This document shows positions 1 through 14,420 of a stretch of DNA of 14,420 nucleotides, one piece after another. This DNA comes from Archangiaceae bacterium (GTDB lineage Bacteria; Myxococcota; Myxococcia; Myxococcales; Myxococcaceae), in contig JAYVCD010000439.1 in NCBI GenBank assembly GCA_043750125.1, positions 1 through 14,420 of the forward strand, written 5' to 3'. The notes under the pieces are model-generated. The model made no database searches and was not told the DNA's origin. It saw only the letters and a list, made by a program, of their open reading frames with translations. Made by a program: the position numbers and the translations under genes. Position 1 is the stretch's first letter. Every line of letters begins with the position of its first letter.

Positions 1-96
1 AACGAAAGCCGTGTGCGGGAAATCCGCATGCACGGTTTGACTGGAGGTGGGGGAACCCGGATCGCGTGAGCGAAACCGGCGCCCCCATCCACCTAT
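1..96 (+). mobile_element. 3' end of a group II intron (domains V and VI); the rest, including any RT/maturase ORF, lies upstream of the window
   Basis: D5 at 6-38, AAGCCGTGTGCGGGAAATCCGCATGCACGGTTT: AGC catalytic triad at 7-9, lower stem 6-14/30-38, 2-nt bulge AT at 28-29, upper stem GCGG/CCGC with a GAAA-containing loop. D6 at about 43-93: GGTGGGGG (46-53) pairs with CCCCCATC (82-89), inner CCGG/CCGG stem and TCGC-GTGA-GCGA GNRA hairpin, candidate branch A91, terminal AY (AT, 95-96). The exact 3' splice site (96 or 97) is uncertain. Confidence 0.93.
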
Positions 97-835
97 GAAT
101 TCCCGCCTCGCCCTGCTGCTCGTCCTTGCTTCGCTGGTCGCTCACGCCCGCTCGAAGAAGGGCCCCAGCCCCGACAAGCACGACGCTCCGGCGACAGTGA
201 TTCTCAACGACCAGAAGACCTCGGTCGTCTGGACCGACGGCGACAGCTTCAGCATCAAGGAAGGCCCGTACAAAGGTCACGGCACCCGGCTGCAGCGCTA
301 CAACACCCTCGAGGCCTTCGGGCCGGTGCATTCCTGGGGCACCTGGACCCCGCGTGAGCTCTACGACATCGCCAAGGCCAGCTCGGGCGTCGCCGCGAGC
401 CAGGAATGGAAATGCACCACCGACGGGAAGCTCGATGGCTACAAGCGGCTGTTGATCGACTGCCCCGAGGCCGCGAAAGAGCTCGTCCGGCAGGGCCACG
501 CGCTGGTCTACGCCGTCGAGGGAAACAAGCCCGACCCCGAGCTGCTGATCCTTCAAAAAGAGGCTCAGAAGAACAAGGTCGGAATGTGGGAAAAAGGAGT
601 CGTCAGTGGCGTCGTCACCAGCGTCCATTCCCTGGGCGAAGACAGCGAGAAGGCCGAAGCCGAGTCCTACAACCGGGTCGTCGACACCCGCACCGGCGAG
701 GCCTTTGCTCGCAAACACAAGAACGCCTACGAGTCTTGCCAGACTGTCTGTGAAAAGACCGACGCCGACCAGTCGTGCATGATCTACGTGCCGTTCAAGC
801 ACCGCTACCGGGCCAAGCCCGACTGCCTGCGGTAG
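95..835 (+). CDS. Secreted thermonuclease (SNase-like) family protein with a Cys-containing C-terminal extension
   Basis: Signal peptide MNSRLALLLVLASLVAHA; SNase motifs DGDS (DGDT), RLQRYNTLE (RLxxIDAPE), DGYKRLL (DxYGRxL), LVRQGHA, EAQKNKVGMW. Start moved from GTG47, which lies in intron D6, to ATG95. Confidence 0.82.
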   Translation: MNSRLALLLVLASLVAHARSKKGPSPDKHDAPATVILNDQKTSVVWTDGDSFSIKEGPYKGHGTRLQRYNTLEAFGPVHSWGTWTPRELYDIAKASSGVAASQEWKCTTDGKLDGYKRLLIDCPEAAKELVRQGHALVYAVEGNKPDPELLILQKEAQKNKVGMWEKGVVSGVVTSVHSLGEDSEKAEAESYNRVVDTRTGEAFARKHKNAYESCQTVCEKTDADQSCMIYVPFKHRYRAKPDCLR

Positions 836-904
836 GCCCCGGCAGTGCATTGAGCCCTCAGGATCCGTTGCCGATGCGGGTGGGCTGCATTAACCACCTG
901 CTCC

Positions 905-2761
905 ATGACTCCCAACCCTGCTGAGCCCACCGGCTACGTGCCTGCCCGGCCCCCCGCGCCTCCCAGGAAGCGCAACTGGGTGCTGTGGGCGGTGATCGGC
1001 GCTCCGCTGCTCGGGTGCTTGTTCTTCAGCGTGATTATGGCGGTCGCCGGTCGAGAGGCCGCGGTCCCCTCGAAAGCCGTGCTGAAGATGACGCTCAGCG
1101 GGCCGATTCCGGAACGCAATGCCGACGAAGGCCTGGCCGAGATTTTCGGCAAGACGCCGCTGACCCTTCGCGACCACCTCGACAACCTGAAGAAGGCCGC
1201 GGCCGACAAGCGAATCAAAGGCGTGGTGCTGCGGCTCGAGATGCCGATGATCGGCTGGGCGAAGACCGAAGAGCTTCGAGACGCGCTCAACCAGTTCAAG
1301 AAGTCGGGCAAGTTCGTGATCGCCTATTCCGAATACCTCGACGAGAAGACCTACGCGCTGGCGCTGAGCGCCGACGAAGTGCTGATGGCGCCCGACAGCT
1401 TCTTCGAGTTCAACGGTCTGTCTTCAGACGTAATCCACTACCCGGGGCTGCTCGAGAAGCTCGGGGTGCAAGTGCAATATTTTCGTTACGGAAAGTACAA
1501 GTCTGTCTCCGGTGAGTCGTTTGGCCGCAAGGCGCTGACCGAGCCGGTGAAAGAAATGATCAATTTCACCCTCGACACCCAGTTCGCCTTGTTTGTCGAT
1601 GCCGTCGCTGCCGCCCGCAAGCTGACCACCGATGAAGTGAAGGCATTGATTGCCGCGCCCGGGCTGCACGCCGAATGGGCGCTGCAGAAAAAGCTGATCG
1701 ACGGCATTTCGTACTGGGATGAGGTCGAGGCGAAGATCAAAAAACGGATGAACCTGGGTGAGAAAGACAAGCTGGGGTTCGTCAGCGCGCACAACTATCG
1801 CAACGTCAGTGATTCAGAGGCAGGCCTCGAAGAGGGCAAGCACACCTTCGCGCTCATCTATTCGCAGGGGCTCGTCGTGGCAGGGAAGGGAGGAATTGAC
1901 CCCTTCAGCGGCGACGACTCGCAGGGCTCGACCCCAATCATCGAAGCGATGCGCAAGGCCGCCGCTGACGACAAGGTGAAGGCGATCATCTTCCGGGTCG
2001 ATTCTCCGGGCGGAGCCGGCCTCGGCTGCGACCTCGTGCGTCGGGAAGTCGAGCGGCTGCGGCAGAAGAAGCCGATCATCGTCTCGATGAGCGACATGGC
2101 GGCCAGCGGCGGTTACTGGGTCTCAATGGACGCGACCGCGATCGTCGCGCAGCCCTCGACCTACACCGGGAGCATCGGAATCTGGAGCGTGGTTCCCAAC
2201 TTGAAGCAGACCTACGAAAAGCTGGACCTCAACCCCGAGGTCTTCAATCGCGGGGCGCACGCCGATGCGCTCAACGGCTCGCGCCCGATGAGCGAAGAAG
2301 AGGCGAAGGTCTTCGATGTCGCCCTCAAGTCGTCCTACGACCGGTTCGTCGACCTCGCCGCCAAGGGCCGAAAGAAGTCGCACGAGCAGATGGAAGAGGT
2401 CGCGCAGGGCCGCACCTGGCTGGGCAAGGTTGCGGTGGAGAACGGGTTGATCGACAAGCTGGGCGGCTTCGAGGCGGCGATCGCCCTGGGGAAAGAGAAG
2501 GCCAATCTGCCCGCGGGCGACTCGGTGAAGCTGGTTCCGTTCGAGAAGAAGAAGTCGATCTTGCAGCAGCTGTTGAGCAAGGACGAAGAGGACGATCTCG
2601 CCGGTCAGGCGGTGAACGGGGTCATCGCCCACGCGATGGAAGTCTCAGGGCTTCGGGCGGTGATCGCCCCCGCCTCTGGCCTGAGCACGGTGGCCCGGCA
2701 GCTGTTGCTCAAGCGCGAGACCCTGTTCCCGATGGCCGAGTACCAACTCGACGTTCACTGA
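905..2761 (+). CDS. sppA: Signal peptide peptidase SppA, long two-domain (67K) type, peptidase S49
   Basis: N-terminal TM segment; KKAAADKRIKGVVL; GKYKS (catalytic Lys); RVDSPGG; MAASGGYW (catalytic Ser); TGSIGI; VAQGRTWLG; GLIDKLGG. Confidence 0.95.
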   Translation: MTPNPAEPTGYVPARPPAPPRKRNWVLWAVIGAPLLGCLFFSVIMAVAGREAAVPSKAVLKMTLSGPIPERNADEGLAEIFGKTPLTLRDHLDNLKKAAADKRIKGVVLRLEMPMIGWAKTEELRDALNQFKKSGKFVIAYSEYLDEKTYALALSADEVLMAPDSFFEFNGLSSDVIHYPGLLEKLGVQVQYFRYGKYKSVSGESFGRKALTEPVKEMINFTLDTQFALFVDAVAAARKLTTDEVKALIAAPGLHAEWALQKKLIDGISYWDEVEAKIKKRMNLGEKDKLGFVSAHNYRNVSDSEAGLEEGKHTFALIYSQGLVVAGKGGIDPFSGDDSQGSTPIIEAMRKAAADDKVKAIIFRVDSPGGAGLGCDLVRREVERLRQKKPIIVSMSDMAASGGYWVSMDATAIVAQPSTYTGSIGIWSVVPNLKQTYEKLDLNPEVFNRGAHADALNGSRPMSEEEAKVFDVALKSSYDRFVDLAAKGRKKSHEQMEEVAQGRTWLGKVAVENGLIDKLGGFEAAIALGKEKANLPAGDSVKLVPFEKKKSILQQLLSKDEEDDLAGQAVNGVIAHAMEVSGLRAVIAPASGLSTVARQLLLKRETLFPMAEYQLDVH

Positions 2762-2773
2762 AAAGAACGCCGC

Positions 2774-3304
2774 CTACTTCAGCTCGCGCGCCAACTGCTC
2801 GAGCTGATTTCGCAGCGACCCGTCGTACACCACGCTGCCCACCTGCGCGGTCAGCCCACCCAGCAGCCGTTTGTCGACCTTCGCCTCGAGCAGCACGTCG
2901 CGCTGGGTCAGCTTCTGCAGCGAGTCTTCCAGCGACTTCAGCTGCCCCGCGTCGAGCACGGTCGCGCTGGTGACCTTCCCCCGCACCCGCCCCATGCGCA
3001 CGTCGACCAGCTCGCGGTAGACGCGAACGATGTCTCCCACCTGGCCCAGCCGGTTGCGGTCATTGAGCAGCCGCAACGTGTTGGCGAGCGCCAGGTTCAA
3101 AGGCTTCGCCGTCAACAGGCCTTCGAGCACCGCCTGGCGCTGCGCCCGGGTGTAGGCGGGGTTGCTGATCACGTCGTTGAGCTCGGGGCTCGAGTCCAGC
3201 GTGAGCACGAATTGTTGCAGCTCGGCGAGCACCTGGTCGGCGGCAGGCCCCGAGGCGTCGAGGAGTGCACGGGCATAGCGGCGGGCGATGGAGACATTGA
3301 CCAT
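2774..3304 (-). CDS. atpH: ATP synthase F1 subunit delta
   Basis: IARRYARAL N-terminus, VISNP, LRLLNDRNRL, VTSA, KVDKRLLGGLTAQVGSVVYDGSLRNQL C-terminal delta/OSCP signature; 176 aa. Confidence 0.96.
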   Translation of the reverse strand: MVNVSIARRYARALLDASGPAADQVLAELQQFVLTLDSSPELNDVISNPAYTRAQRQAVLEGLLTAKPLNLALANTLRLLNDRNRLGQVGDIVRVYRELVDVRMGRVRGKVTSATVLDAGQLKSLEDSLQKLTQRDVLLEAKVDKRLLGGLTAQVGSVVYDGSLRNQLEQLARELK

Positions 3305-3314
3305 TTCGCCGCGC

Positions 3315-3342
3315 GGCGTAACACGGCGTCCGGGAACGTCAA
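3315..3342 (-). promoter_or_regulatory. Putative sigma70-type promoter for atpH
   Basis: On the minus strand TTGACG (-35, 3342-3337), 16-nt spacer ending TGT, then TACGCC (extended -10-like, 3320-3315), 10 nt before the ATG. No Shine-Dalgarno is visible. Confidence 0.5.
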
Positions 3343-3387
3343 AGAGAGAGTGGGGACCCCTTTTTTCTGCTTGTCTGCCCCCCTCAA

Positions 3388-5199
3388 ATGGAACCCGTCA
3401 TCGGCATCGACCTCGGCACGACGTACAGCGCCGTCGCAACCGTCGAAGCAGGCAAGCCGGTCTTGATTGCGTCTCGCTCGGGCGCGCGGCTGACTCCTTC
3501 GATCATCGGCTTCACCGGGTTGGGAGACCGGGTCGCCGGCGAGCAGGCGCGGATGCTGGGAGACGAGGCGCCCGACCGCGTCGCACCGGCGACCAAGCGC
3601 TACATCGGCAAGCGCTGGAGCCCCGCGCTTGCGGCCAGCGCCAGGTCGGTGGTGCCCTACGCGTTGATCGCCGGGCCCAACGGAGAAGTGCGAATCAAGG
3701 TCGCCGGCCGGACGCTGCCGCTGACGCAGATCGCCGCGATGCTGCTGGGCGAACTGAAGCTCGACGCCGAAGCCCACTTCGGAGTGCCGGTTCAAAAGGC
3801 GGTCATCACCGTCCCCGCCAACTTCGACGACGGGCAGCGGTTTGCGACCCGGGAAGCCGCGCGCATCGCCGGCCTCGACGTGCTGCGCATCATCAATGAA
3901 CCCACCGCGGCGGCCGTCGCCTACGGCTTCACCGACAGCTTCCAGGGCCGGGCGTTGGTGTTCGATCTGGGCGGTGGCACCTTCGACGTGAGCATTCTCG
4001 AAGTCGAGAACGGGGTCTTCGAAGTCAAGGCGTCGGGAGGAGACCCCCAGTTGGGCGGCGACGACTTCGACAACCGCATCGTCGAATGGCTGCTGGCCCA
4101 GCTGCCCGAGGGAATTCGTCAGGCGGCCGGCAAAGACCGGGTCTCGATGCAGCGGCTGCGACACACCGCCGAGCGCGCGAAGCGCACGCTCACCGAGAAA
4201 GCCGAGGCCTTCATCTCGGTCGCAGACCTGGGCGATCATTCGACCGCGACCGCGAACCGGTACGCGCAGCTCGACACCGCGCTCACCCGCGATTTCTTCG
4301 AAGCGCTGGCCGACCCGCTGACCCGTCGCTGCATCGAGGTCTGCAGCAAGGTGATGGAACAGGCGCACGTCACTCCGAAGAGCATCGACGCGGTGATGCT
4401 CGTCGGAGGAATGACCCGGGTGCCGCTGGTGCGAAAGTTGGTGCTCGACCTGTTTGGCAAGGACCCCGTCGCCGGCGTCAACCCCGACGAAGTGGTCGCG
4501 CTCGGCGCCGCGGTGCACGCCGCCGAGCTGTCGCGTCAGCAAGGGGCCGCGCTGCTGATCGACGTGGCCACCCACACCCTGTCGATCGGCACCCTCGGCG
4601 GCGGAGTGCGCAAGCTGCTCGCGAAGAACACTCCGGTTCCCGCGAGCGCGAAAGAGATTTTTCTACCCGCCCGCAGCGGTCAGACCGACGCGCGAATGCA
4701 GATTTTCCAGGGCGACAGCGACAGCGCGGTCGACTGCACCAAGCTGGGCGAAGTGGTGCTCACCGACCTTCACGTCGAGCGCCGGGGCGATGTTCCGATC
4801 GAAGTCACCTTCGAGCTGTCGGCGGAAGGCACGCTGTCGGTGCGCGCGGTCGACACCACCACCGGCATGGGCGAAGCGCTGCGCATCGACGCGCGCACCA
4901 CGCTCTCTGTCGCTGAAGTCGACCGGCTTCAGGCCGAGCAGCAGAAGTACGCCACCGAGCAGGGTGAGCGCGACAAGCACCTGGCCGTCACTGCGTTTCC
5001 GCAAATCCTCGACAAGGCCGAGAAGCTCGCCCGCCTGCTCGAGCGCAGCGCTTTGGAAAACCCGGGCCCGGAAGCCGAAGGAGTCGTCGGCGAAGTGCGC
5101 GCCCTGCTCGCCCGCGGCCAGGCGGCGCTCAAGGGGTCCAACACCACCGCGATGGCCGACGTGGCCCGCACGCTCGAGAAGTTGTTCTCGGTGGTCTGA
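3388..5199 (+). CDS. Hsp70/DnaK-family protein (divergent paralog, probably not the housekeeping DnaK)
   Basis: [76 protein letters not shown]; divergent substrate-binding domain. Confidence 0.95.
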
Positions 5200-5207
5200 A
5201 GTCTTCC

Positions 5208-5732
5208 TCAACCACCGCGCCTGGCCAGCGGCGCGGTGTGCAGCAGCGTCACCGGGGGGCGGTCCAGCCGGCAGACACACAGCGCGTCGAGCGTGAACCG
5301 CCCCGGGACCCGCACCGCGAGCAGCGTGCGCGCGTCGGCCGCGCTGACCGGTGAGCGGGTGCGCAGGGTGCAGTGCGGTTGAAAGGCGTGCGGGCTGTCG
5401 TGAAACCGGATGCCCGACGCAGCGACCCGCTGGTGCAGCGTTCGAAACGGAGCCTCGTTCTCGAGCGTCAGCGCGAACACGTCTGTATTCGGAAAGCGAA
5501 CCACCCGCCCAAAGGCAGTCTCGATCGGAGCGGTGTCTTCGGCGATCCGGTCGATGATCGCGTACGCCTCGACCAGGCTTTGCGAGGCGTCGAGCAGGCC
5601 CACTCCGTTCGAGCCGGCGATGGTGATTTCCGCCGGCAGCGAGGCGAAGAAGGTGTCCTTTTGCGAGCGCCGAACATCAATCACCCGGTCACAGAACGGC
5701 GGGGGGATGTTGAGCACGAAGTAGATGTTCAT
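5208..5732 (-). CDS. 2H phosphoesterase / 2'-5' RNA ligase-family protein with a degenerate first motif
   Basis: 174 aa; second motif FQPHCTL is intact; the first-motif position reads PAEITI; RFPNTDVF and the ending FTLDALCV fit the LigT-like layout. Confidence 0.75.
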   Translation of the reverse strand: MNIYFVLNIPPPFCDRVIDVRRSQKDTFFASLPAEITIAGSNGVGLLDASQSLVEAYAIIDRIAEDTAPIETAFGRVVRFPNTDVFALTLENEAPFRTLHQRVAASGIRFHDSPHAFQPHCTLRTRSPVSAADARTLLAVRVPGRFTLDALCVCRLDRPPVTLLHTAPLARRGG

Positions 5733-5783
5733 TTCTAAAGCTGAAGCTTCATTCCGTCGTGGCTCGCCTTGAACCCCAGGCGT

Positions 5784-6860
5784 TCAGTCTCCGATGAGGT
5801 CACACCCCGACTCGAACCCGGTGGCATCGAATTCCCGCGTCATGCTTCCCACCGCAGCGGCCGTCTCTCCCGCCGCAGTCCACCGCGCGATGAGCTTGAG
5901 CTCGTGGCGGCCGTTGCGCTTGGGCGAGCAGTACTCGAGCAGGTAGAAACGGTTGGCGAGCCCGGCGACCTTTTCTGCGATGCGCGAGAAGGCCAGGGCC
6001 AATTCGGCGGGCGCGTTCGCCGGGTAGTAGCCGTCTTTCCCGTAGCTCTCGAGCGCGCCGCGATCGACTTCGGTGCCGAGGCCGACCGTGAAGATGTGCA
6101 CCGGGCTTGCCCGCACCCGCGCCAACACGCTGACGCTGCTCTCGCGGGCCGCCTGGTCGGTGCCATCGGTAAAGACGATCAGCGACGCGTCTTTGAACGC
6201 CACGTCTTTCTGCGCCGAGCTCTGCGCCTGGAGCAGGTCGATCGCCTGGATCAACGCTCCGTTGAGGTTGGTGCTGTCGTCGACGCAGCGGTACGCCGCG
6301 CAGGTCTTCGCTTCGGGGTTCCCAGCGCACTGCGCGTTCGATTCGCACTGCCGATCTTCCAGCGACTTGAGCCCGTCGAGCAGCGCGGTCTTCTCACCGG
6401 TAAACCCGACCACCTGCTGCGGAACCACCCGGCCATCGAAGGTGTAGATCGCCACCCGCTGGCCGTCGGTCGCCCGCGCCAGCACGGTCTCGATGTATTT
6501 GGTCGCCGCGCCGCGCACCACCGGCCAACTGTTCGAGCGCAAGATGCTTCCGGAAAAGTCGAGCAGCAGCAGCGAATCCATCTGGTAGCGCTGGCCTTTG
6601 GGCTGAACCGTGCGCCGGCTCTCGTAGGGGCTGACCGCGTTTCCGTCTTCGAGGATTTCGAAGTTGTCGCCGGTCAGCCCGCTCACCGGTTGACCTCCAC
6701 AGGTGTCGACGCTGAAGAAGGCCGAGACCTTCCCCGGCCGGGTGGTGGTCACTGCCTCTGCACCGGGTTGAGAGAATTGAAGGCAGTTGGGCAGGTCGGA
6801 AAACTGGGGGCCACAGCCAACAACGAGGAGCAACAGGCCTGCTGCGCGCGTGTAGGTCAT
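5784..6860 (-). CDS. VWA-domain lipoprotein
   Basis: Lipobox LLLLVVG-C; MIDAS elements LLLDFSGS, TNLNGAL, IVFTDG; VSGLTGDNFEILEDG pre-VWA segment; YLLEYCSPKRNGRHEL C-terminal domain. Confidence 0.85.
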   Translation of the reverse strand: MTYTRAAGLLLLVVGCGPQFSDLPNCLQFSQPGAEAVTTTRPGKVSAFFSVDTCGGQPVSGLTGDNFEILEDGNAVSPYESRRTVQPKGQRYQMDSLLLLDFSGSILRSNSWPVVRGAATKYIETVLARATDGQRVAIYTFDGRVVPQQVVGFTGEKTALLDGLKSLEDRQCESNAQCAGNPEAKTCAAYRCVDDSTNLNGALIQAIDLLQAQSSAQKDVAFKDASLIVFTDGTDQAARESSVSVLARVRASPVHIFTVGLGTEVDRGALESYGKDGYYPANAPAELALAFSRIAEKVAGLANRFYLLEYCSPKRNGRHELKLIARWTAAGETAAAVGSMTREFDATGFESGCDLIGD

Positions 6861-7073
6861 TGTGGGGCAGACGGTATTCCTCCTCTGGACCTCCGCAATT
6901 TTCTGGCGGTAGATCGGCGAGGCTTTTCAAGATCGATTTGCGGTTCAAATACAGATGTCAACGTTCGCACGACGGGTTAATCAGACCGCGCCAGTCCGTC
7001 GCAGGTTCTCGGGGCCTCCCTGTCTGATTGCATGGGGAGTGAGAGCCCGATGGCTGCAAAGGGGAGGTGGGTC

Positions 7074-8132
7074 GTGAAGAGATTGTTGTGGTTGGCACTC
7101 ATCGCTGCCGGTGCGAGCGCGTCGGCCGGGGCTTCAGAGACTTCGCTCAAACCGCAGGGAGCGCCGCTGAAGGTCACCCGGGTGCGGGCCGTGTTGTCGA
7201 CGGCCAAGGACGAGCTGACCGGCTCGTTGTTCCCTTCCAAGCTGGGGGCCCTGGGCTTTGAAGTCGGCGGGCGGTTGATGAAGAGCCGGGTCGTCAAGGG
7301 CGAAGGGGTCAAGGAAGGAGCGGTGCTGGGCCAGCTGGACCCGGAGATTGTCGACGCTCAGGTCGCCGGAGCCGAAGCGGCGGTGGCTGCGGCCGAAGCC
7401 GGCGCCGAGATGGCCAGCGACCTTGCCGCGCGAAACGAGAAACTGAAAATTGAAGGCAGCGTCAGCGACGTGCAGAGCAAGGGCGCGAGCACGACTTCCA
7501 AACAGGCCCAGGCGCAGCTGCTCGGAGCGCGCGCGCAGCTGGCTCAGATCAAGGCGGCTCGCAGGCGGCACGACTTGAAGGCTCCGTTCGCGGGGACGGT
7601 GATCGACGCTCCGGATCAAATCGGAGGAATGGTCGGCCCCGGACTGCCGGTCTACATCATCGAGCAGCTCGACCCGCTGATCCTCAAGACCACCATCAGC
7701 GAAGACGCACGTTCCGTGGTGAAGCCGGGGGTCAAGGTGAAGGTGTCCTCGGTCGGCGGCAAGGCTTCGACCGATGACGCGGTGGTGAAGGTGGTGCTCG
7801 CCTCGGCCGACCCGCAGACGCGGCGAATTCCGGTCGAGATCTCGGTACCCAACTCCGACGGGCGCTTCGTCGCCAACACCCTGGCCCGGGCGGTGATGCC
7901 GATGGGCAGCGCGCAACAGGCGGTCGCGATTCCAGCCACCGCGCTCGGGACCAACGCGGGCGAGCACGTCTGGTCGGTCGGGCCCGACGGTCAGTTGAAA
8001 CGCGTCCCGGTCAAGGTGCTCGAGCGCCTCGGCAAAGAAATCGTGTTGTCCGCCGCTGAGCCGCTCGAGCAGATCATCGACTACCCGACCTCGGCGCTCG
8101 TCGAAGGCTCCAAAATCACTCCCTCGCGCTGA
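7074..8132 (+). CDS. RND efflux periplasmic adaptor (membrane fusion protein)
   Basis: GGAGG at 7063-7067 ahead of GTG7074 gives MKRLLWLALIAAG; lipoyl halves FEVGGRL...VKEGAVLGQLD and LKAPFAGTV flank an Ala/Gln-rich hairpin; ADPQTRRIPVEI; IPATAL. In-frame ATG7032 and ATG7050 are alternative starts. Confidence 0.92.
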   Translation: MKRLLWLALIAAGASASAGASETSLKPQGAPLKVTRVRAVLSTAKDELTGSLFPSKLGALGFEVGGRLMKSRVVKGEGVKEGAVLGQLDPEIVDAQVAGAEAAVAAAEAGAEMASDLAARNEKLKIEGSVSDVQSKGASTTSKQAQAQLLGARAQLAQIKAARRRHDLKAPFAGTVIDAPDQIGGMVGPGLPVYIIEQLDPLILKTTISEDARSVVKPGVKVKVSSVGGKASTDDAVVKVVLASADPQTRRIPVEISVPNSDGRFVANTLARAVMPMGSAQQAVAIPATALGTNAGEHVWSVGPDGQLKRVPVKVLERLGKEIVLSAAEPLEQIIDYPTSALVEGSKITPSR

Positions 8133-8141
8133 CAGGCATCC

Positions 8142-11100
8142 ATGACTCTTTCCGACGTGAGTATTCGTCGCCCCGTCTTCACCACGATGATGTCGGTGTG
8201 CCTGGTCGTTCTGGGCGTGATGGGCTTCAGCCGGCTGGGCACCGATTTTTTTCCCGACGTGAGCCTGCCGGTCGTCGTCGTCACCACCCTCTACAAAGGC
8301 GCCGGGCCTTCCGAAATCGAGAACCAGGTCTCCAAGCCGATCGAAGACTCGGTCGCGGGAATCAGCGGCGTGGACCAGATTCATTCGTTCTCGCGCGAGA
8401 ACGTCTCGCTGGTGGTGGTGATGTTCAAGCTGTCCACCAGCCTGGATCGCGCCGTTCAGGAAGTGCGCGACAAGGTCTCGGGCATCACCCGCTTGCTGCC
8501 TTCCGACGCAGATCCGCCCACGGTCGGCCGGGTCGACATCGGAGCGTCCCCGGTCATCACCTACGCCGCGACCGCAAACGTGCCGTCGAAAGACCTGCGC
8601 CGGATGATCAAAGAACGGCTCGAGCCGACCCTGGCTCAAATCGAAGGCGTGGCCGAGGTGCGGGTCATCGGCGGCGACGTGCGTGAGATTCGCGTCAACA
8701 TCGATCTCGACAAGGCGAAGGCGGCGGGCATCGCTCCGGGACAGGTCGCGGAAAAGATCGGCACCGAGAACCTGAACCTTCCCGCCGGGCGCCTCGAGCT
8801 GGGGCCCACCGAGCTGACCGTCCGGGCGATCGGTCAGTACGCGAACGTCGACGCGTTGCGCGCGCTCACCATCGCCAAGAGCCAGTCGGGATCGCAGGTG
8901 CGGCTCGATGAGATCGCCGAAGTGGACGACGCGGTCGCCGACCAGCGAACGCTCGCCCGGCTCAACGGCACCGAGGCGATCATCGTCGACGTGGTGAAGC
9001 AGCCCGGCTCGAACACCATCAAGGTCGCCGACGAAGTGAAGAAGATGATGACCCAGATGGAACCCGTGCTCGGCAACGGCTTTCAAGCGCGCCCGCTGGT
9101 CGACCAATCGTTGCTGGTCAAAGAGAACGCCCACGAGGTCTACGTTGCGTTGATCTTCGGCGGCTTCATGGCGGTGTTGATCATTTTGCTGTTCCTGCTC
9201 GACCTGCGCGGCACGTTCATCAGCTCGCTGGCCCTTCCCACCAGCGTGATCGGCACGTTCTTCGTGATGTTCGTGCTCGGCTACACCCTCAACCAGATGA
9301 CCCTGCTCGCGCTGTCATTGGCGATCGGGCTGTTGATCGATGACGCGGTGGTGGTGCGCGAGGCGATCACCCACCGCCTCGAGCTGGGGGAATCTCCGCG
9401 CAGCGCGGCCTCGAACGGGACCAAGGACGTCTACCTCGCGGTGTTGGCCACCACCTTGTCCCTGGTCGCGGTGTTCGTCCCGGTGGCGTTCATGCCCGGA
9501 ATCGTGGGGCAGTTCTTCAAGCAGTTCGGGATCACCATCTCGGCCGCGGTGATCATCTCGTTGTTCATCAGCTTCACCCTCGACCCGATGCTGTCGGCCC
9601 GGCTGGCGAAGGCCCGAAAGCCCGGCGAGGCACGCAAAGAGAACGCGGTCGCTGCGGTGCTGCGCCGCGGGTTCAATTCGATGGAGCACGGCTACGAGCA
9701 GATCTTGCGCTGGGTCCTGCGGAACCGGGCTTGGACCGGGTTGGTCACCGTGGGAATTCTGGTGCTGTCGGGCTACGGGGCGAGGAACCTCGGCGCAGAG
9801 TTCACTCCGCAGGAAGACCGTGCGCAGTTCATGGTGGATCTGCAGCTGAGCGACGGGGCGAGTCTTTCGGAAACCACCGTTCGCACCGCGATGGCCGAGG
9901 CGGTGTTGAAGAAGATCCCCGAAGTGACTGACGTCTACAGCATCGTCGGGCTGAACGGAGACGTGAACAAGGCGCGGCTGCGGGTGCTGACGACCGAGAA
10001 GAACAAACGGTCGCGCGGGATTCAGGTGATCAAGGAAGACACCCGGGCGCTCTTGACTCCGGTGTTGCCCGCGACGGCGGTGACCCTGCTCGATCCTCCG
10101 CAGATTGAAGGCGCCGGCGACTTCTTTCCGATCATGGTCCGGGTGATGGGGCCCGAGCTCGAGGTCGTCACCGAGCAAGCCGAACGAATCGCTGGGATCA
10201 TGCGCGAGATTCCCGGAACCGCCGACGTGCGCGTCGAGGCGAATCCTCCCAAGCCCGAGCTGCAGGTGATCATCGATCGCGCGCGTTCCAGCGACGTCGA
10301 TCTGTCTTCGGCTTCGCTGGCGATGCAGCTGCGCCTGGCGATGAGCGGGCAGACGGTGGGCAAGCTGCGCGAGGGCACCGAAGAGACCGACATCGTGGTG
10401 CGTCTGGCCGAGAAAGATCGCGCCACCCCCGATGCGGTCGCGCGGCTCGACATCTTCACGCCCAAAGGACTTCGCTCGGTCAGCGACGTGGCGACCCTGG
10501 TCACCCGCGACGGACCCAGCGTGATCGAGCACCACAACCGCCAGCGTCAGGTCGCCGTCTACAGCGGTCTGGGCAAAGGCGCGGCGCTGGGCGACATCGC
10601 CTCGCAGCTGCGCAAGCGCCTCGAGCAGGCCCCCGTGCCGCCGGGCTATTCGATTTTCTACGACGGGCAGGTGAAGACCTTCGATGAGCAGAACGCGGCG
10701 TTCGCGGTCGCCTTCGGGCTCGCCTTCGTCTTCATCTACATGGTGCTCGCTTCGCAGTTCGAGAGCTTCAAGCACCCGTTTACGATCATGGTCTCCGTCC
10801 CGCTGGCGTTGATCGGAGCCCTGCTCGGCCTGGTCCTGGGCGGCTTCAACCTCTCGCTGGGAGCGATGATCGGGATCATCTTGCTGATGGGCCTGGTGAC
10901 GAAGAACGCGATCTTGCTCGTCGATGGAGCGCTGCAGAACCTTCGCGCCGGCGATGATCTCAACACCGCGCTGCTCAAGGCCGGCCCCCGTCGGCTGCGC
11001 CCGATTCTGATGACGTCAGCCGCAATGGCAATCGGAATGGTCCCAACCGCGCTCGGCACCGGAATGGGCAGCGAGTTCCGCGCGCCGATGGCGGTGGCCG

Positions 11101-11279
11101 TCATCGGAGGCGTCATCACTTCGACCTTCCTCACCCTGCTGGTCGTCCCGGTGGTGTTCAGCTTCTTCGAGAATCTCACTCCGCGCGCCCTGCGAATCGG
11201 CAAGACCGTCGAGGAAGACGAGCTCGCCGAGCCGGGGGTCGAACAACCCAGGCCCGCTGCACTCAAGCGGTCCGCGTGA
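8142..11279 (+). CDS. RND efflux permease, AcrB/AcrD/AcrF family
   Basis: 1045 aa; SIRRPVF start; TM4 GLLIDDAVVV; SFTLDPML; GLVTKNAILLVD; RLRPILMT; proton-relay Asp-Asp, Lys and Thr residues are present. Confidence 0.97.
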   Translation: MTLSDVSIRRPVFTTMMSVCLVVLGVMGFSRLGTDFFPDVSLPVVVVTTLYKGAGPSEIENQVSKPIEDSVAGISGVDQIHSFSRENVSLVVVMFKLSTSLDRAVQEVRDKVSGITRLLPSDADPPTVGRVDIGASPVITYAATANVPSKDLRRMIKERLEPTLAQIEGVAEVRVIGGDVREIRVNIDLDKAKAAGIAPGQVAEKIGTENLNLPAGRLELGPTELTVRAIGQYANVDALRALTIAKSQSGSQVRLDEIAEVDDAVADQRTLARLNGTEAIIVDVVKQPGSNTIKVADEVKKMMTQMEPVLGNGFQARPLVDQSLLVKENAHEVYVALIFGGFMAVLIILLFLLDLRGTFISSLALPTSVIGTFFVMFVLGYTLNQMTLLALSLAIGLLIDDAVVVREAITHRLELGESPRSAASNGTKDVYLAVLATTLSLVAVFVPVAFMPGIVGQFFKQFGITISAAVIISLFISFTLDPMLSARLAKARKPGEARKENAVAAVLRRGFNSMEHGYEQILRWVLRNRAWTGLVTVGILVLSGYGARNLGAEFTPQEDRAQFMVDLQLSDGASLSETTVRTAMAEAVLKKIPEVTDVYSIVGLNGDVNKARLRVLTTEKNKRSRGIQVIKEDTRALLTPVLPATAVTLLDPPQIEGAGDFFPIMVRVMGPELEVVTEQAERIAGIMREIPGTADVRVEANPPKPELQVIIDRARSSDVDLSSASLAMQLRLAMSGQTVGKLREGTEETDIVVRLAEKDRATPDAVARLDIFTPKGLRSVSDVATLVTRDGPSVIEHHNRQRQVAVYSGLGKGAALGDIASQLRKRLEQAPVPPGYSIFYDGQVKTFDEQNAAFAVAFGLAFVFIYMVLASQFESFKHPFTIMVSVPLALIGALLGLVLGGFNLSLGAMIGIILLMGLVTKNAILLVDGALQNLRAGDDLNTALLKAGPRRLRPILMTSAAMAIGMVPTALGTGMGSEFRAPMAVAVIGGVITSTFLTLLVVPVVFSFFENLTPRALRIGKTVEEDELAEPGVEQPRPAALKRSA

Positions 11280-12673
11280 GGCCCATGACCCGACCGTCGT
11301 TTGCGTTGTTCGTCTGCTTCGTCGCGTTCACTGCCGGGGCCCAGGTCCCGACTCCGTCTGAGATTTCGGGCCCGGCCCTGGTCGAGCCGTCGCCCCGTCG
11401 ACCCGTCAGCCTCGAGGACGCACTCAAGCTGACCGCGCAGAACAACCAGGATCTCGCGGCCGCCCGCGCGCAGCATCAACAGGCCAGGGCGCAGGCCAGC
11501 CGCGTCTGGGGGGCCATTCTTCCGGAAGTCAGCGCTTCGGGCAGCCTGGTGCGAACCAGCGCGCCCGCGAAGTTGGATCTCGGCCAATTCGTCGGCCTGG
11601 TCGGCGGGGTCTACGGGATTACTCCGAAGGACGCGTCGCTGATTCCTGAGCCCGTCTACATCACCAAAACCGACTCGGCGTACGCCTCGCTGTTGATCAC
11701 TCAGACCCTCTTCACCCCGCAGCTGTTCTTGATTCCCGCGGCGTCCAATGGGGTCGAAGCAGCGCGGCTGGGTGCGCTCGAGGCCCGCGAACAGGTGCTG
11801 TTGGGAACGGCCAAGGTCTACCTCGCCCTCGAAGGCATCGCCCAACTCGAGAGCGCCGCGCGCGAGGCCGAAGCGGTGGCCCTCAAGCGCGAGAAGGACA
11901 CCCGCGCCCAGATGGCGGTGGGAATGGCAGTCGAGGTCGCCTCGCTGCGCGCTCAGGTTGAGACAGCCCAGGCGAGAAATACGCTCGCCCAACTGGCGGG
12001 CACCCGCGAGCAGCTGCTCGGGCTGCTCGAGGCCTTGACCGGTGAGGCGGTGCGCCCGCTCGAGGACGGACCCCGACTCGACTTCGGAACTGCTGCGGCC
12101 GAGAAGTCCGAGCCGTGGAATGCGACCTACCTCGTTCGGGCGCAAGGCAAAGGCGCTGAGGCCACCGAGGCCTACCATCTGTATGACCGGCTGGCGTGGA
12201 TGCCCACGGTCTTCGCGCAGGCCAAGGGCAACTACAACTCGAACACCGGCTTCACCGGTCAGGCCTTCAGCTACGACCTGAGCCTCGGGCTCACCGTGCC
12301 GCTCTACGACCGCGGCGCGCGCTACGCGACCATGCACGAGAACGACGCGAAGTCGGTCGAGCAACGGGCGAAGTTGCTCAGCAGTCAGCAGAAAGCCAAG
12401 GCCAACTGGGTCGCCAGTCGGGCCAGCCTGCAGGCCGCCGAAGCCGCGCTCGCGCAGGCCAATTCTCAAGCGACGCTCGCGGCCCGAGCGCAAAAGCAAC
12501 TCGAGTCGGCCGTGGGTGCCGGCGTGTCGACCGCGCTCGAGCTGTCGGACATCGACAATAAACGGTTTCTGGCTGCCAGCGCCGCGGCCCAGGCCCGCAG
12601 CCAGGTCGAGATTCGGAAAGTCGAGCTCGCCGCGGCAGAGGGGAGGTTGGCGAAGGTGATTGGCCTCGAGTGA
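11276..12673 (+). CDS. TolC-family outer membrane efflux protein
   Basis: GTGA start/stop overlap with the RND gene (ATG11285 is an alternative); signal peptide; VSLEDALKLTAQNN; LPEVSASGS; LGLTVPLYDRG; third gene of the MFP-RND-OMF operon. Confidence 0.92.
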   Translation: MRPMTRPSFALFVCFVAFTAGAQVPTPSEISGPALVEPSPRRPVSLEDALKLTAQNNQDLAAARAQHQQARAQASRVWGAILPEVSASGSLVRTSAPAKLDLGQFVGLVGGVYGITPKDASLIPEPVYITKTDSAYASLLITQTLFTPQLFLIPAASNGVEAARLGALEAREQVLLGTAKVYLALEGIAQLESAAREAEAVALKREKDTRAQMAVGMAVEVASLRAQVETAQARNTLAQLAGTREQLLGLLEALTGEAVRPLEDGPRLDFGTAAAEKSEPWNATYLVRAQGKGAEATEAYHLYDRLAWMPTVFAQAKGNYNSNTGFTGQAFSYDLSLGLTVPLYDRGARYATMHENDAKSVEQRAKLLSSQQKAKANWVASRASLQAAEAALAQANSQATLAARAQKQLESAVGAGVSTALELSDIDNKRFLAASAAAQARSQVEIRKVELAAAEGRLAKVIGLE

Positions 12674-12714
12674 CCTCGACCTCAACGGCCTTCGGGTCCT
12701 CCCCGGGTTTTTGA

Positions 12715-12740
12715 GGCACTGACTAATATTAGTCAGTGCC
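12715..12740. repeat. Perfect 26-bp palindrome, REP-like
   Basis: GGCACTGACTAATATTAGTCAGTGCC equals its own reverse complement; AT-rich core in high-GC DNA. The REP-like label is inference. Confidence 0.9.
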
Positions 12741-12811
12741 CCCTCGAAGACGCCCGCCCCGGCAAGTCGCGCAGTCCGGTCGATGTGAAGACCGGTGTTC
12801 CGATGTGGTAG

Positions 12812-13147
12812 TCGGCGGGTCCGCTTGGCCCTCGCGATCTTCGCCGTGACGCGTTGACTCTGGTCGGCTCGACGCTGTTTTCCAACGTGCCGTACGTGAT
12901 GCTCGCGCGCGAGTGGGTGCCGAAGATGACGCACCCGGCATTCGCCTGGCAGGTGTTGGTGCTCGCTTCGACGCTGGCCGGCAATCTGACGCTGGTCGGC
13001 AGCGTGGCCAACCTGATCGTCTTCGAAGGCGCCCGCGGCAAAGTCGAGGGTCCCTTCTGGGCGTACCTGAAAGTGGGCGTCCCGGTGACGTTGCTCTCGT
13101 TCGGCCTGGCCCTGGGAGTCCTCTGGGCCGAGCACGCCCTGCTCTGA
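12812..13147 (+). pseudogene. 3' fragment of an ArsB/NhaD (ion transporter superfamily) permease
   Basis: FSNVP and ASTLAGNLTLVGSVANLIV motifs plus a final TM helix FWAYLKVGVPVTLL; only about 100 aa of a family that is typically about 400 aa; in-frame TAG at 12809-12811 and no N-terminal part upstream. Confidence 0.85.
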
Positions 13148-13157
13148 AAAGCGCCGT

Positions 13158-13335
13158 TCAGCTCGACCCCGCTTCGAGCAGCAGCTTCACGGATCGCGAC
13201 CGGCGCGGGTGTCTTCCAGTCGACCGACTTGATGTTCACGTACCAGCGCGGCGCGTTCGTGGGGTCCGCCGAAAATGATGCGACCTCGGCGATGGGGCGG
13301 TGGATCAAAATCTCAGTGAGGACGTCGACGGTCCT
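13158..13335 (-). pseudogene. SRPBCC (START-like) family gene remnant with an internal deletion
   Basis: TVDVLTEILIHRPIAEVASFSADPTNAPRWYVNIKSVDWKTPAPVAI is an SRPBCC N-terminus. At about 13191 it joins, out of frame, VKLLLEAGSS*, which resembles the family C-terminus. The expected start codon reads AGG (13335-13333). Confidence 0.75.
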
Positions 13336-13423
13336 GGGCGGCTGAGCGTTGCATGGGACGGGCGCGAACGTGAGGGCCGACTTCCGCCAGCCGGGTTTTG
13401 CTCGCGCTCGTACCTTCTCGAGC

Positions 13424-13798
13424 ATGACGATCTCCTACTTCGTGTCGGCGATTCCTTCTTCCTAGCTCGACGTGCTGCGACGCACTGCCACTGCCCACAT
13501 CGACGAGACTGGCGGCTCGCCGTTGCGGTGTTGCCTGCGCTTGTCCGTCCCGGGCGAAACCACGCCCTGCACCGGCCATCTCGAGCCCGGGTGGCCGCCC
13601 GACTTTCGCAACCGCAGCCAGGTGCTTCGCGCTTACGACTCGGCCGGGCGGATCGCTGCCGCAGTGCTGGTGGACGGAAAGGACGCCGAGCCTCACATCA
13701 CGGCGCTGCTGCAGAACCCCGAACATCAGATCCTTCACAGCCGAAACGTTCTCTACGGGTGCTTCATGTTCACCCTCTCGAACAGGAAGCCGCGGTAG
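13424..13798 (+). pseudogene. DUF1203-family gene with a nonsense codon and an internal deletion
   Basis: ATG13424 MTISYFVSAIPSS, TAG at 13463-13465, then in frame GGSPLRCCLR...PGE, VLRAYDSAGRI, HSRNVLYGCFMF. The central segment expected between PGE and PC (ending GPVFIH in this family) is missing at about 13560. Confidence 0.75.
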
Positions 13799-14420
13799 TC
13801 GGCCCGCGCGCCACTGCCATGAACCTTGGGCGAGTAGCCGCAGATCAATTCCCGCTGCAACTTCCACCGCTCGTTGGGAACCTGCCGCAGCAGCTCATCG
13901 CGCGAGATGAACCACTCGGGCCCCGAATACGAAGTCCCGTCCGGGTTGAGCCACCGTTGGGACATCACTTGAGAGTGACCGTCGAGAATGACGGGGACCA
14001 TGGTGAGGAAGAGATAGTCTTTGGCGGCGTCGGCGAGTTTTCCAACCACGCCTTCCCAGTCTTCGAAGTAGTGAAGTGAGTTGTTGGCGACCACCAGGTC
14101 GTACATTTTCTCGAGACAGCTGAAGTCCGAGGTGAAGGACACTTCCGGAAACCGCTTCGAGCCAAAGGCCACCGAGGTCGGCAAGTCGAAGCAGGTGCAG
14201 TCGAGCTTCAGGTCGGGAAGCAGCGCGCGGAGCAGGCCGTATTGGTGACCGACTCCGCCTCCCCAATCGAGAAGGCTGATCGCCGGCCGTTGCCGCGCCG
14301 CACGCGCTGCTGCGAAGACCAGTCCCAGCACCGCGTTGTGCCGCAGCAGATTGTCGGCTGAGAACAGCTCAGTCCTCGGATCAAAAGCCGACGACTCGAG
14401 CTCCGAGGCGAACACCGGAG
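13753..14420 (-). CDS. Class I SAM-dependent methyltransferase (TIGR04325-like), 5'-partial
   Basis: Motif I SLLDWGGGVGHQY, CFDLP, YDLVVANNSLHYFEDW, YRGFLF; the frame is open to the window edge. Confidence 0.8.
   Translation of the reverse strand, partial: PVFASELESSAFDPRTELFSADNLLRHNAVLGLVFAAARAARQRPAISLLDWGGGVGHQYGLLRALLPDLKLDCTCFDLPTSVAFGSKRFPEVSFTSDFSCLEKMYDLVVANNSLHYFEDWEGVVGKLADAAKDYLFLTMVPVILDGHSQVMSQRWLNPDGTSYSGPEWFISRDELLRQVPNERWKLQRELICGYSPKVHGSGARADYRGFLFERVNMKHP

Follow-up and report, generated by a model that had tools for sequence, protein, structure and literature searches.

A group II intron lineage associated with start codons behind leaderless-type promoter motifs, seen at the edge of an Archangiaceae contig

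The window analysed here is a 14,420-nucleotide stretch of DNA from an Archangiaceae bacterium (assembly GCA_043750125.1, contig JAYVCD010000439.1, positions 1 to 14,420 of the forward strand). It begins inside a mobile group II intron, the 3'-terminal 97 nt of which (1-97, plus strand) run up to and include the ATG that opens a gene for a secreted, SNase-like nuclease. We propose, with good but incomplete confidence, that this intron belongs to a specialised clade which inserts between codons 1 and 2 of genes with leaderless-promoter geometry and which ends in an ATG or GTG of its own.

Rfam family RF00029 (group II intron domains 5 and 6) matches window positions 4-93 with 42.5 bits (E 1.2e-5), barely over its gathering score of 40. 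The RNAalifold consensus of 42 such tails places the domain 5 helix at 9-35 on the plus strand (10 pairs, three of them with compensatory changes, and in agreement with the Rfam alignment) and domain 6 at 43-93, with its 5' strand at 43-53, its 3' strand at 82-93 and a bulged A at 91. This A91, the presumed branch point in the model, is the seventh base counted from G97, and the Rfam consensus tail is spaced in the same way. The last four bases (94-97, UAUG) form an unpaired tail, in which ATG 95-97 would be carried by the intron; the sequence from 81 to 100 reads gcccccatccacctatgaat. Positions 1-69 hold, in frame 1, the last 22 codons and the TGA stop (67-69) of an open reading frame (ORF) that encodes a reverse transcriptase (RT)/maturase, runs through domain 5 and stops in the domain 6 loop. 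These are the only RT codons in the window, and the same tail ends an RT fragment on contig C167 of the same assembly, in which the RT domain (Pfam RVT_1, E 3.4e-36) and the maturase or X domain (GIIM, E 7.5e-14) are both present. Domain I of the lineage matches RF02003 (group-II-D1D4-4). The initial annotation, made from the letters of the window, had recognised a group II intron whose domain 6 abuts the ATG, had described the bases before the ATG as paired in domain 6 and had noted that no Shine-Dalgarno sequence precedes it. The Rfam match and the consensus fold bear out the first two points, the ATG itself being unpaired, and by eye no purine-rich Shine-Dalgarno-like run was found between positions 75 and 94.

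The genome of the window (hereafter G000; 460 contigs, 89% complete, the window being contig C439) contains 11 matches to domains 5 and 6, eight of which form one family. Seven family members lie at contig ends (C2, C134, C362, C363, C427, C298 and C439), and the copy on C167 extends 1.15 kb further than the others, with a 404-amino acid open RT/maturase fragment. The eight are 98-99% identical over about 95 nt, all end in ...CCACCTATG with the same ATG, and diverge completely beyond it. The assembly broke at this multi-copy repeat, which is why the contig starts within the intron; from the shared 3' ends followed by divergence, the truncation in the window is therefore an assembly break and not biology. 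The copies are not placed at random with respect to coding sequence, since in seven of the eight the ATG is followed by an in-frame ORF of at least 81 amino acids (111, 401, 701, 666, 812, 246 and 81 residues). By eye, four of the ORFs behind the other G000 copies have lipoprotein-type N-termini, and the ORF behind the C134 copy encodes a 2-hydroxyacid dehydrogenase, with the Pfam domain beginning at residue 3. On the 5' side, clustered contig ends yielded junctions on C317, C318, C319 and C79, which end ...ATG|GTGCGTCGTGAAGG, and two internal copies (C90 and C3) share the ATG|GTGCG junction, giving six 5' junctions in all. In this genome the intron is bordered by an ATG on either side. The DNA that precedes each 5' ATG is non-coding and holds a TANNNT box followed by 6-7 nt, with the exception of C90 (TAAAGA).

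Several further repeats were encountered in G000. Degenerate relatives of the intron, with the RT broken or deleted, occur on C90 (L002, 688-1534) and C46 (L003, to about 2078); they still end ...ACC(C/A)ATG, before ORFs of 310 and 37 amino acids. C46 also carries, at 593-668, domains 5 and 6 of a third, different group II intron (52.5 bits), which ends ...CTACTCACC with no terminal ATG. One of the eight family copies, on C427 (L008; 93-1598, minus strand), lies antisense in an ORF with P-type-ATPase motifs, identified by eye; the ORF takes its stop codon from intron sequence, and this gene appears to have been truncated C-terminally by an off-target insertion. At least 10 other repeat families, probably insertion sequences, break the assembly, one of them with 28 members and a repeated GATCCACC-type terminal motif; several other repeat-family contig ends begin CTAG.

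A search with the RT fragment produced 80 related loci in about 50 assemblies, the hosts being Myxococcota, many Acidimicrobiia (with several copies per genome), Kribbella, Solirubrobacteraceae and a few metagenome-assembled genomes (MAGs) labelled Burkholderiales or Bryobacteraceae. Copies were present in the cultured strains Embleya sp. NBC_00896 (NZ_CP108777.1) and Kribbella sp. DT2. A copy of about 2 kb in Archangium is 89% identical, and from its length the intron of the window, an endonuclease-less and RT-encoding one in our reading, would likewise be about 2 kb long. At 72 of the 80 loci the intron ends in ATG or GTG; three ends were unreadable and five belong to the RT outgroup described below. 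Together with the eight uniform ends in G000, this agreement goes far past what chance would give. Fifty-six of the loci, together with the six junctions in G000, provide 62 distinct 5' junctions, and every one of them ends in a start codon (ATG in 40, GTG in 22). In 59 of the 62 a TANNNT box precedes this codon at a spacer of 6-8 nt. The individual spacers are 6 nt (40 junctions), 7 nt (18), 8 nt (one) and 9 nt (one), and across the 62 junctions only four TANNNT occur at any other offset within 57 nt. The 5' exons hold no coding sequence of the same gene, only the -10-like box, 6-7 nt and the start codon.

Among the 58 loci with at least 300 nt of downstream sequence, 53 have an in-frame ORF of at least 60 amino acids, against 14 and 28 in the other two frames; the median lengths are 218, 15 and 44.5 amino acids, respectively. 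Since this test discriminates weakly in GC-rich DNA, we place the weight on the junction motifs, the N-termini and the empty sites. By eye many of the downstream N-termini are typical of their families, which include Fpg/Nei-like proteins beginning MPE..., short-chain dehydrogenases, MiaB-like, Fmt-like and HIT proteins, and antitoxins. The collected copies agree with the suggestion of the initial annotation that start codons are the homing sites of this intron and that codon 2 is left with an intact ATG before it.

The RT tree (FastTree, built from the ORFs) comprises 48 ingroup and five outgroup rows, and the branch that splits them has 99% SH-like support. Every determinable ingroup intron end is RUG; of the five ingroup rows whose ends had been left unclassified, three end in ATG, one lies on a contig that stops inside domain 6 and one has no domain 5 in its locus. 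Two outgroup copies (L102 and L105) continue past domain 6 without an RTG, whereas the contigs of the remaining three end at domain 6 or just beyond it. An intron on a Streptomyces plasmid, with 47% RT identity, has the canonical ...UAC end and sits among transposase genes. The start-codon trait maps to one RT clade.

Near-identical introns within one genome differ in their 5' triplet, which is ATG or GTG, but share a constant 3' triplet; the former is therefore taken from the host and the latter belongs to the intron. When the first 640 nt of 54 full introns were aligned, a single column of the 805 separated ATG from GTG types. It lies in a hairpin loop, ...CU-CAY-GUCA..., which contains exon-binding site 1 (EBS1), the partner of intron-binding site 1 (IBS1) in the 5' exon. 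The C of CAY pairs with the G at exon position -1 and its A with the T at -2, each in 54 of 54 introns. The Y pairs with position -3 as U-A in 32, C-G in 15 and U-G in seven, with no incompatible combination, and the following G faces a C at -4 in 45 of 46. The C variants of EBS1 are scattered over the RT tree, at six or more distinct positions. EBS1 (CAYG) covaries with the host start codon, which places the 5' splice site right after that codon. Compared with the GUGYG of group II introns, the 5' ends read GTGCG at the G000 junctions, and of the 54 full relatives 34 start with G (GTGCG, in one case GTGTG) and 20 with TTGCG. Terminal GUG was seen only with EBS1 CAC (nine of 15, versus none of 39 with CAU), which hints that EBS1 may also meet the intron's own end. 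Strict covariation of the terminal RUG with EBS1 was considered and rejected, six introns combining EBS1 CAC with terminal AUG.

Empty sites complete the picture of the boundaries. The 5' flank on C318 and the 3' flank on C134 are two halves of one locus, since the upstream gene of the C318 junction and the dehydrogenase of C134 adjoin in three relatives (G004, G002 and G001). Joined in silico, as the initial annotation had advised, the exons correspond to empty alleles with one ATG: a -10-like box, the single ATG, then CGC GTG CTC ATC GCC..., the start of the dehydrogenase. Because there is one start codon at empty sites, the 3' splice site follows the RUG of the intron. The C319 site is empty in G001 and G004, where TAGGCT and 7 nt precede the ATG of a secreted protein of 172-185 amino acids; the downstream gene of these two genomes had no tblastn match in G000. 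Applied to the window, this register would make the whole ATG at 95-97 intron sequence, with the 3' splice site after G97 and an intron ending in UG rather than AY. At the dehydrogenase site the spacer between box and ATG measures 6 nt in the intron-bearing genome and 8-10 nt in the three empty relatives (L128-L130 compared with L119). The shorter spacer may explain why only the G000 allele was invaded.

The nuclease gene (95-835, plus strand) encodes 246 amino acids with a weak match to PF00565 (SNase; 29.2 bits against a Pfam cut-off of 21) and with residues 1-18 that, by eye, resemble a Sec signal peptide. Orthologs in the same genus (74-77% identical) and a paralog in G000 open with MN(W/R)RL or MTRRL at the same codon; the ATG is the genuine start of the gene, as first supposed. 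The accompanying idea that the intron had severed the gene from its native leader did not survive, the targets showing leaderless-gene geometry instead. In the DNA, codon 1 of the nuclease would be supplied by the intron, the native exon beginning at 98, and the native ATG and promoter would lie about 2 kb upstream, in unassembled sequence. It is plausible that expression of the nuclease would depend on splicing or cleavage. Both the orthologs and the paralog directly follow a dCTP-deaminase-like gene (dcd). The paralog forms part of a second, intron-less dcd / SNase-like nuclease / SppA block on C438 (1327-4574), where TAAGCT and 6 nt precede its ATG. This contig also holds the sole dcd of G000. 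The C438 block shares 77% and 84% amino acid identity with the window genes at 95-2761, and arose by segmental duplication or else comes from a second strain or species that was binned with this MAG (contamination 1.96%).

What kind of signal do these introns enter? The conserved T, A and last T of the box, its three free inner bases, the spacer of 6-7 nt and the purine of the start codon together match, as far as the letters go, the geometry of a leaderless promoter. By this geometry of sequence, a TANNNT about 7 nt before a purine start codon, the 59 junctions named above qualify. In Mycobacterium tuberculosis, according to the accessible part of one report (PMC3898074), the -10 motif TANNNT lies 7-12 bp upstream of the start site, +1 is a purine in 85% of cases and many genes are leaderless. 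We envisage that the target would be recognised through 3-4 bp of EBS1-IBS1 pairing, CAYG with (C)RUG, together with a further read-out of the TANNNT box, and that mobility would rely on replication-fork priming, as in other endonuclease-less introns. The terminal ATG or GTG of the intron would keep the host ORF next to a start codon, both in the DNA and in RNA that is still unspliced. Transcription from the host -10 box would start at the host start codon, so that the 5' exon would be only 3 nt long, and splicing would restore the native leaderless mRNA. The terminal RUG could be a spare start codon or a mimic that binds EBS1.

One step in this scheme that has another explanation is the read-out of the box. 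The intron protein or RNA might read TANNNT directly as DNA sequence, much in the way that LtrA reads distal 5'-exon bases, and the resemblance to a -10 element would be evolved mimicry or coincidence; the targets need then be neither leaderless nor transcribed from the box. This alternative, which we regard as a real possibility though a doubtful one, concerns the read-out alone and is otherwise compatible with insertion at leaderless-type start codons. On both strands of G000 there are 545 TANNNT-N6/7-RTG sites, 195 of them with C at -4, a rarity that would give direct reading enough specificity. It would also suit the nuclease site, which lies directly after the dcd stop, and the lack of a -35-type promoter in the two flanks scanned. 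Yet only T, A and the last T are kept and the spacer varies between 6 and 7 nt, which is the signature of a sigma factor at -10 and not of base pairing.

A more sweeping alternative dispenses with promoter targeting altogether: the intron would reverse-splice at any short (C)RTG, and the copies that survive would be the expressed, harmless ones behind a promoter and a start codon. An IBS1 of just 3-4 nt fits this explanation, as do the one G000 copy that lies antisense in a gene and the few copies with short downstream frames. However, a 4-nt target predicts that neutral copies should be common in intergenic DNA or other mobile elements, and even the sites before short ORFs (L044 and L112) carry the box; moreover, selection among random insertions accounts poorly for 59 of 62 junctions with TANNNT at a fixed spacer of 6-8 nt. 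We consider it improbable.

The exact register of the splice sites also has a competitor. The initial annotation had drawn the boundary as AT|G, with the intron ending AU at 96, G97 as the first exon base and homing between the T and the G of the start codon. This would keep the canonical AY end, which holds in no other register considered here, and would give the same ligated product, TG being repeated at both junctions. In the register backed by the EBS1 covariation and the domain 6 spacing the introns end AUG or GUG and so depart from AY. However, AT|G would turn the GUGCG or UUGCG at the start of the intron into GGUGCG or GUUGCG and would leave the GTG-ending lineages with a GU end, and the bulged A would lie 6 nt rather than 7 from the end. 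The IBS1 of known group II introns runs up to the 5' splice site, and EBS1 pairs with the G at -1 in all 54 copies. We judge AT|G unlikely to be correct. Start-codon homing, as first proposed, stands; the boundary does not, EBS1 being compatible with all three start-codon bases in 54 of 54 and A91 lying 7 nt before G97.

There is little chance that the copy in the window is a dead relic and the nuclease expressed from another signal: only 97 nt of it are assembled and degenerate relatives, for example C90 with its broken RT, share the genome, but it is 98% identical to the C167 copy over about 97 nt (the others 98-99%), which suggests recent activity, and its domains 5 and 6 score above the Rfam threshold.

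A number of observations weigh against insertion at leaderless-type promoters as set out above. A strict two-hexamer sigma-70 scan found no promoters in the two flanks scanned of the six 5' flanks from G000. In relatives the nuclease starts 2-12 nt past the dcd stop, and it may lie within an operon and not behind a promoter of its own. The assembly lacks the 5' junction of the window's copy, and no second dcd or partner contig was found in G000. The in-frame ORF is shorter than 60 amino acids at five of the 58 loci, and the ORF criterion is itself weak, as at least 60 open codons follow 53% of all RTG in G000 and 65% of all its TANNNT-N6/7-RTG sites. The C427 copy lies antisense in the ATPase-like ORF with a 6-codon frame after it, and the 5' exons of G000 carry A or G at -4, not C. 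A UG end is contrary to the AY rule for introns. The repeated TG allows three registers that lead to the same spliced product, and it is from sequence that we deduce where transcription starts, that splicing takes place and in which exact register it does so.

The reading frame that enters the intron from the host start codon deserves attention. In 53 of 54 copies its first 122 codons are free of stops, as opposed to none of 54 stop-free copies in either of the other two frames over the same stretch and about 4% of shuffled sequences. The Actinomycetota type has this frame terminate within a conserved loop, next to an RUG in that loop, and the RT stop lies 110-113 nt before the intron end in most copies. 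In introns of the Myxococcota type (five of five) the frame is carried on without a break to the end of the RT ORF, and the RT stop lies 27-29 nt before the terminal ATG (L024 included), the ORF running through domain 5 into the domain 6 loop. One might go further and suppose that the clade reads leaderless promoters as such, possibly as DNA opened by sigma or RNA polymerase, and so captures both the transcription and the translation start of the host, with the RT possibly translated from the host start codon and the terminal RUG serving as a spare start codon or an internal copy of IBS1. This extension is speculative, and we think it rather unlikely in its entirety. Such an internal copy could free the 3' end of the intron when the 3-nt 5' exon is lost, and the fact that every determinable ingroup end is RUG suggests a start-codon role. 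Two points count against translation of the RT from the host start codon: the copies are related to one another, and about 50 codons downstream there is another conserved candidate start (GAGGGCATG). The same candidate weakens the stop of the upstream ORF as a marker of the RT start.

Downstream of the nuclease, the window encodes an SppA-type signal peptide peptidase (905-2761, plus strand; PF01343, E 3e-70), with the same gene order on C438 and in relatives. The region from 2774 to 13425 contains genes for an ATP synthase delta subunit (minus strand) and an Hsp70 paralog, and an HlyD / AcrB / outer-membrane-factor efflux operon. The Hsp70 paralog has many relatives in the same genome.

If the proposal is correct, dozens of unrelated genes in each genome have a ribozyme at their first codon, and their expression is tied to splicing. 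The genes affected include enzymes in which the N-terminal residue matters, such as the Fpg/Nei-type protein that starts MPE. The lineage would also show that, in nature, a group II intron can work when its 5' exon is only 3 nt long and its 3' end is not AY. In practical terms, gene callers will take the intron-borne ATG as the gene start and miss the intron, and short-read assemblies break exactly at such start codons, as in the window. The copies in Embleya sp. NBC_00896 and Kribbella sp. DT2 make the idea testable.

Group II introns within or next to initiation or termination codons, with a functional codon re-created, are on record in the lineage of Michel 2007 (as described in the accessible part of PMC12584367). 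Like those IIB1 introns, the present ones adjoin a start codon and re-create it. According to the same portion of that article, the IIB1 lineage has 300-700 nt inserted close to the 5' end of domain I, and its homing target is a single conserved gene. In contrast, the present introns measure 1.85-2.04 kb with an RT frame, leaving about 0.5 kb in total for the ribozyme. The conserved upstream motif of the RT frame lies about 0.4-0.45 kb from the 5' end, and its stop 27-125 nt before the intron end in 51 of 54. With so short a non-RT length there is no room for a domain I insertion of 300-700 nt. They differ further in being multi-copy per genome at unrelated genes, with a generic target of a -10 box plus start codon, and in their RUG end.

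With class C (IIC) introns the present lineage shares the lack of an endonuclease domain, a very short IBS1, the absence of an IBS2-like conserved stretch, and a multi-copy habit at a generic genomic signal rather than one homing site. Class C introns insert downstream of intrinsic terminators or attC sites, whereas the signal here is a promoter-type -10 box with a start codon, the insertion falling inside the first codons. No terminator-like site was found on the intron strand upstream of the junction in either of the two flanks scanned, of the 62, and the junctions follow a start codon in 62 of 62 cases and a TANNNT box in 59. The 3' end departs from the standard arrangement of domain 6 plus AY, as it does in B.c.I4-type introns. 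Those splice 53-56 nt after domain 6 (PMC2691827, in the section available); the present introns do so only 4 nt after domain 6, with the standard 7-nt spacing between branch point and end.

Bacterial group II target specificities are given as homing sites, terminators and attC sites in the accessible part of a 2015 review (PMC4424553), and the start-codon habit is absent from the available portions of PMC7306698, PMC3552965 and PMC8919778. The literature searched, with supplements, Michel 2007 (Biochimie) and Simon 2008 set aside, contained no description of leaderless start-codon targeting. Start-codon-associated group II introns are known; the generic leaderless-promoter target and the non-AY end are new to the literature searched. 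An analogy in habit is the yeast retrotransposon Ty3, which is targeted to transcription start sites through host factors (PMC7306698, in the part available). It too is a retroelement landing at a generic transcription-initiation signal, but it belongs to another element class and has another mechanism and another host. If the proposal holds, these introns add a fourth target specificity to homing sites, terminators and attC sites, in a multi-copy lineage that extends across several phyla.

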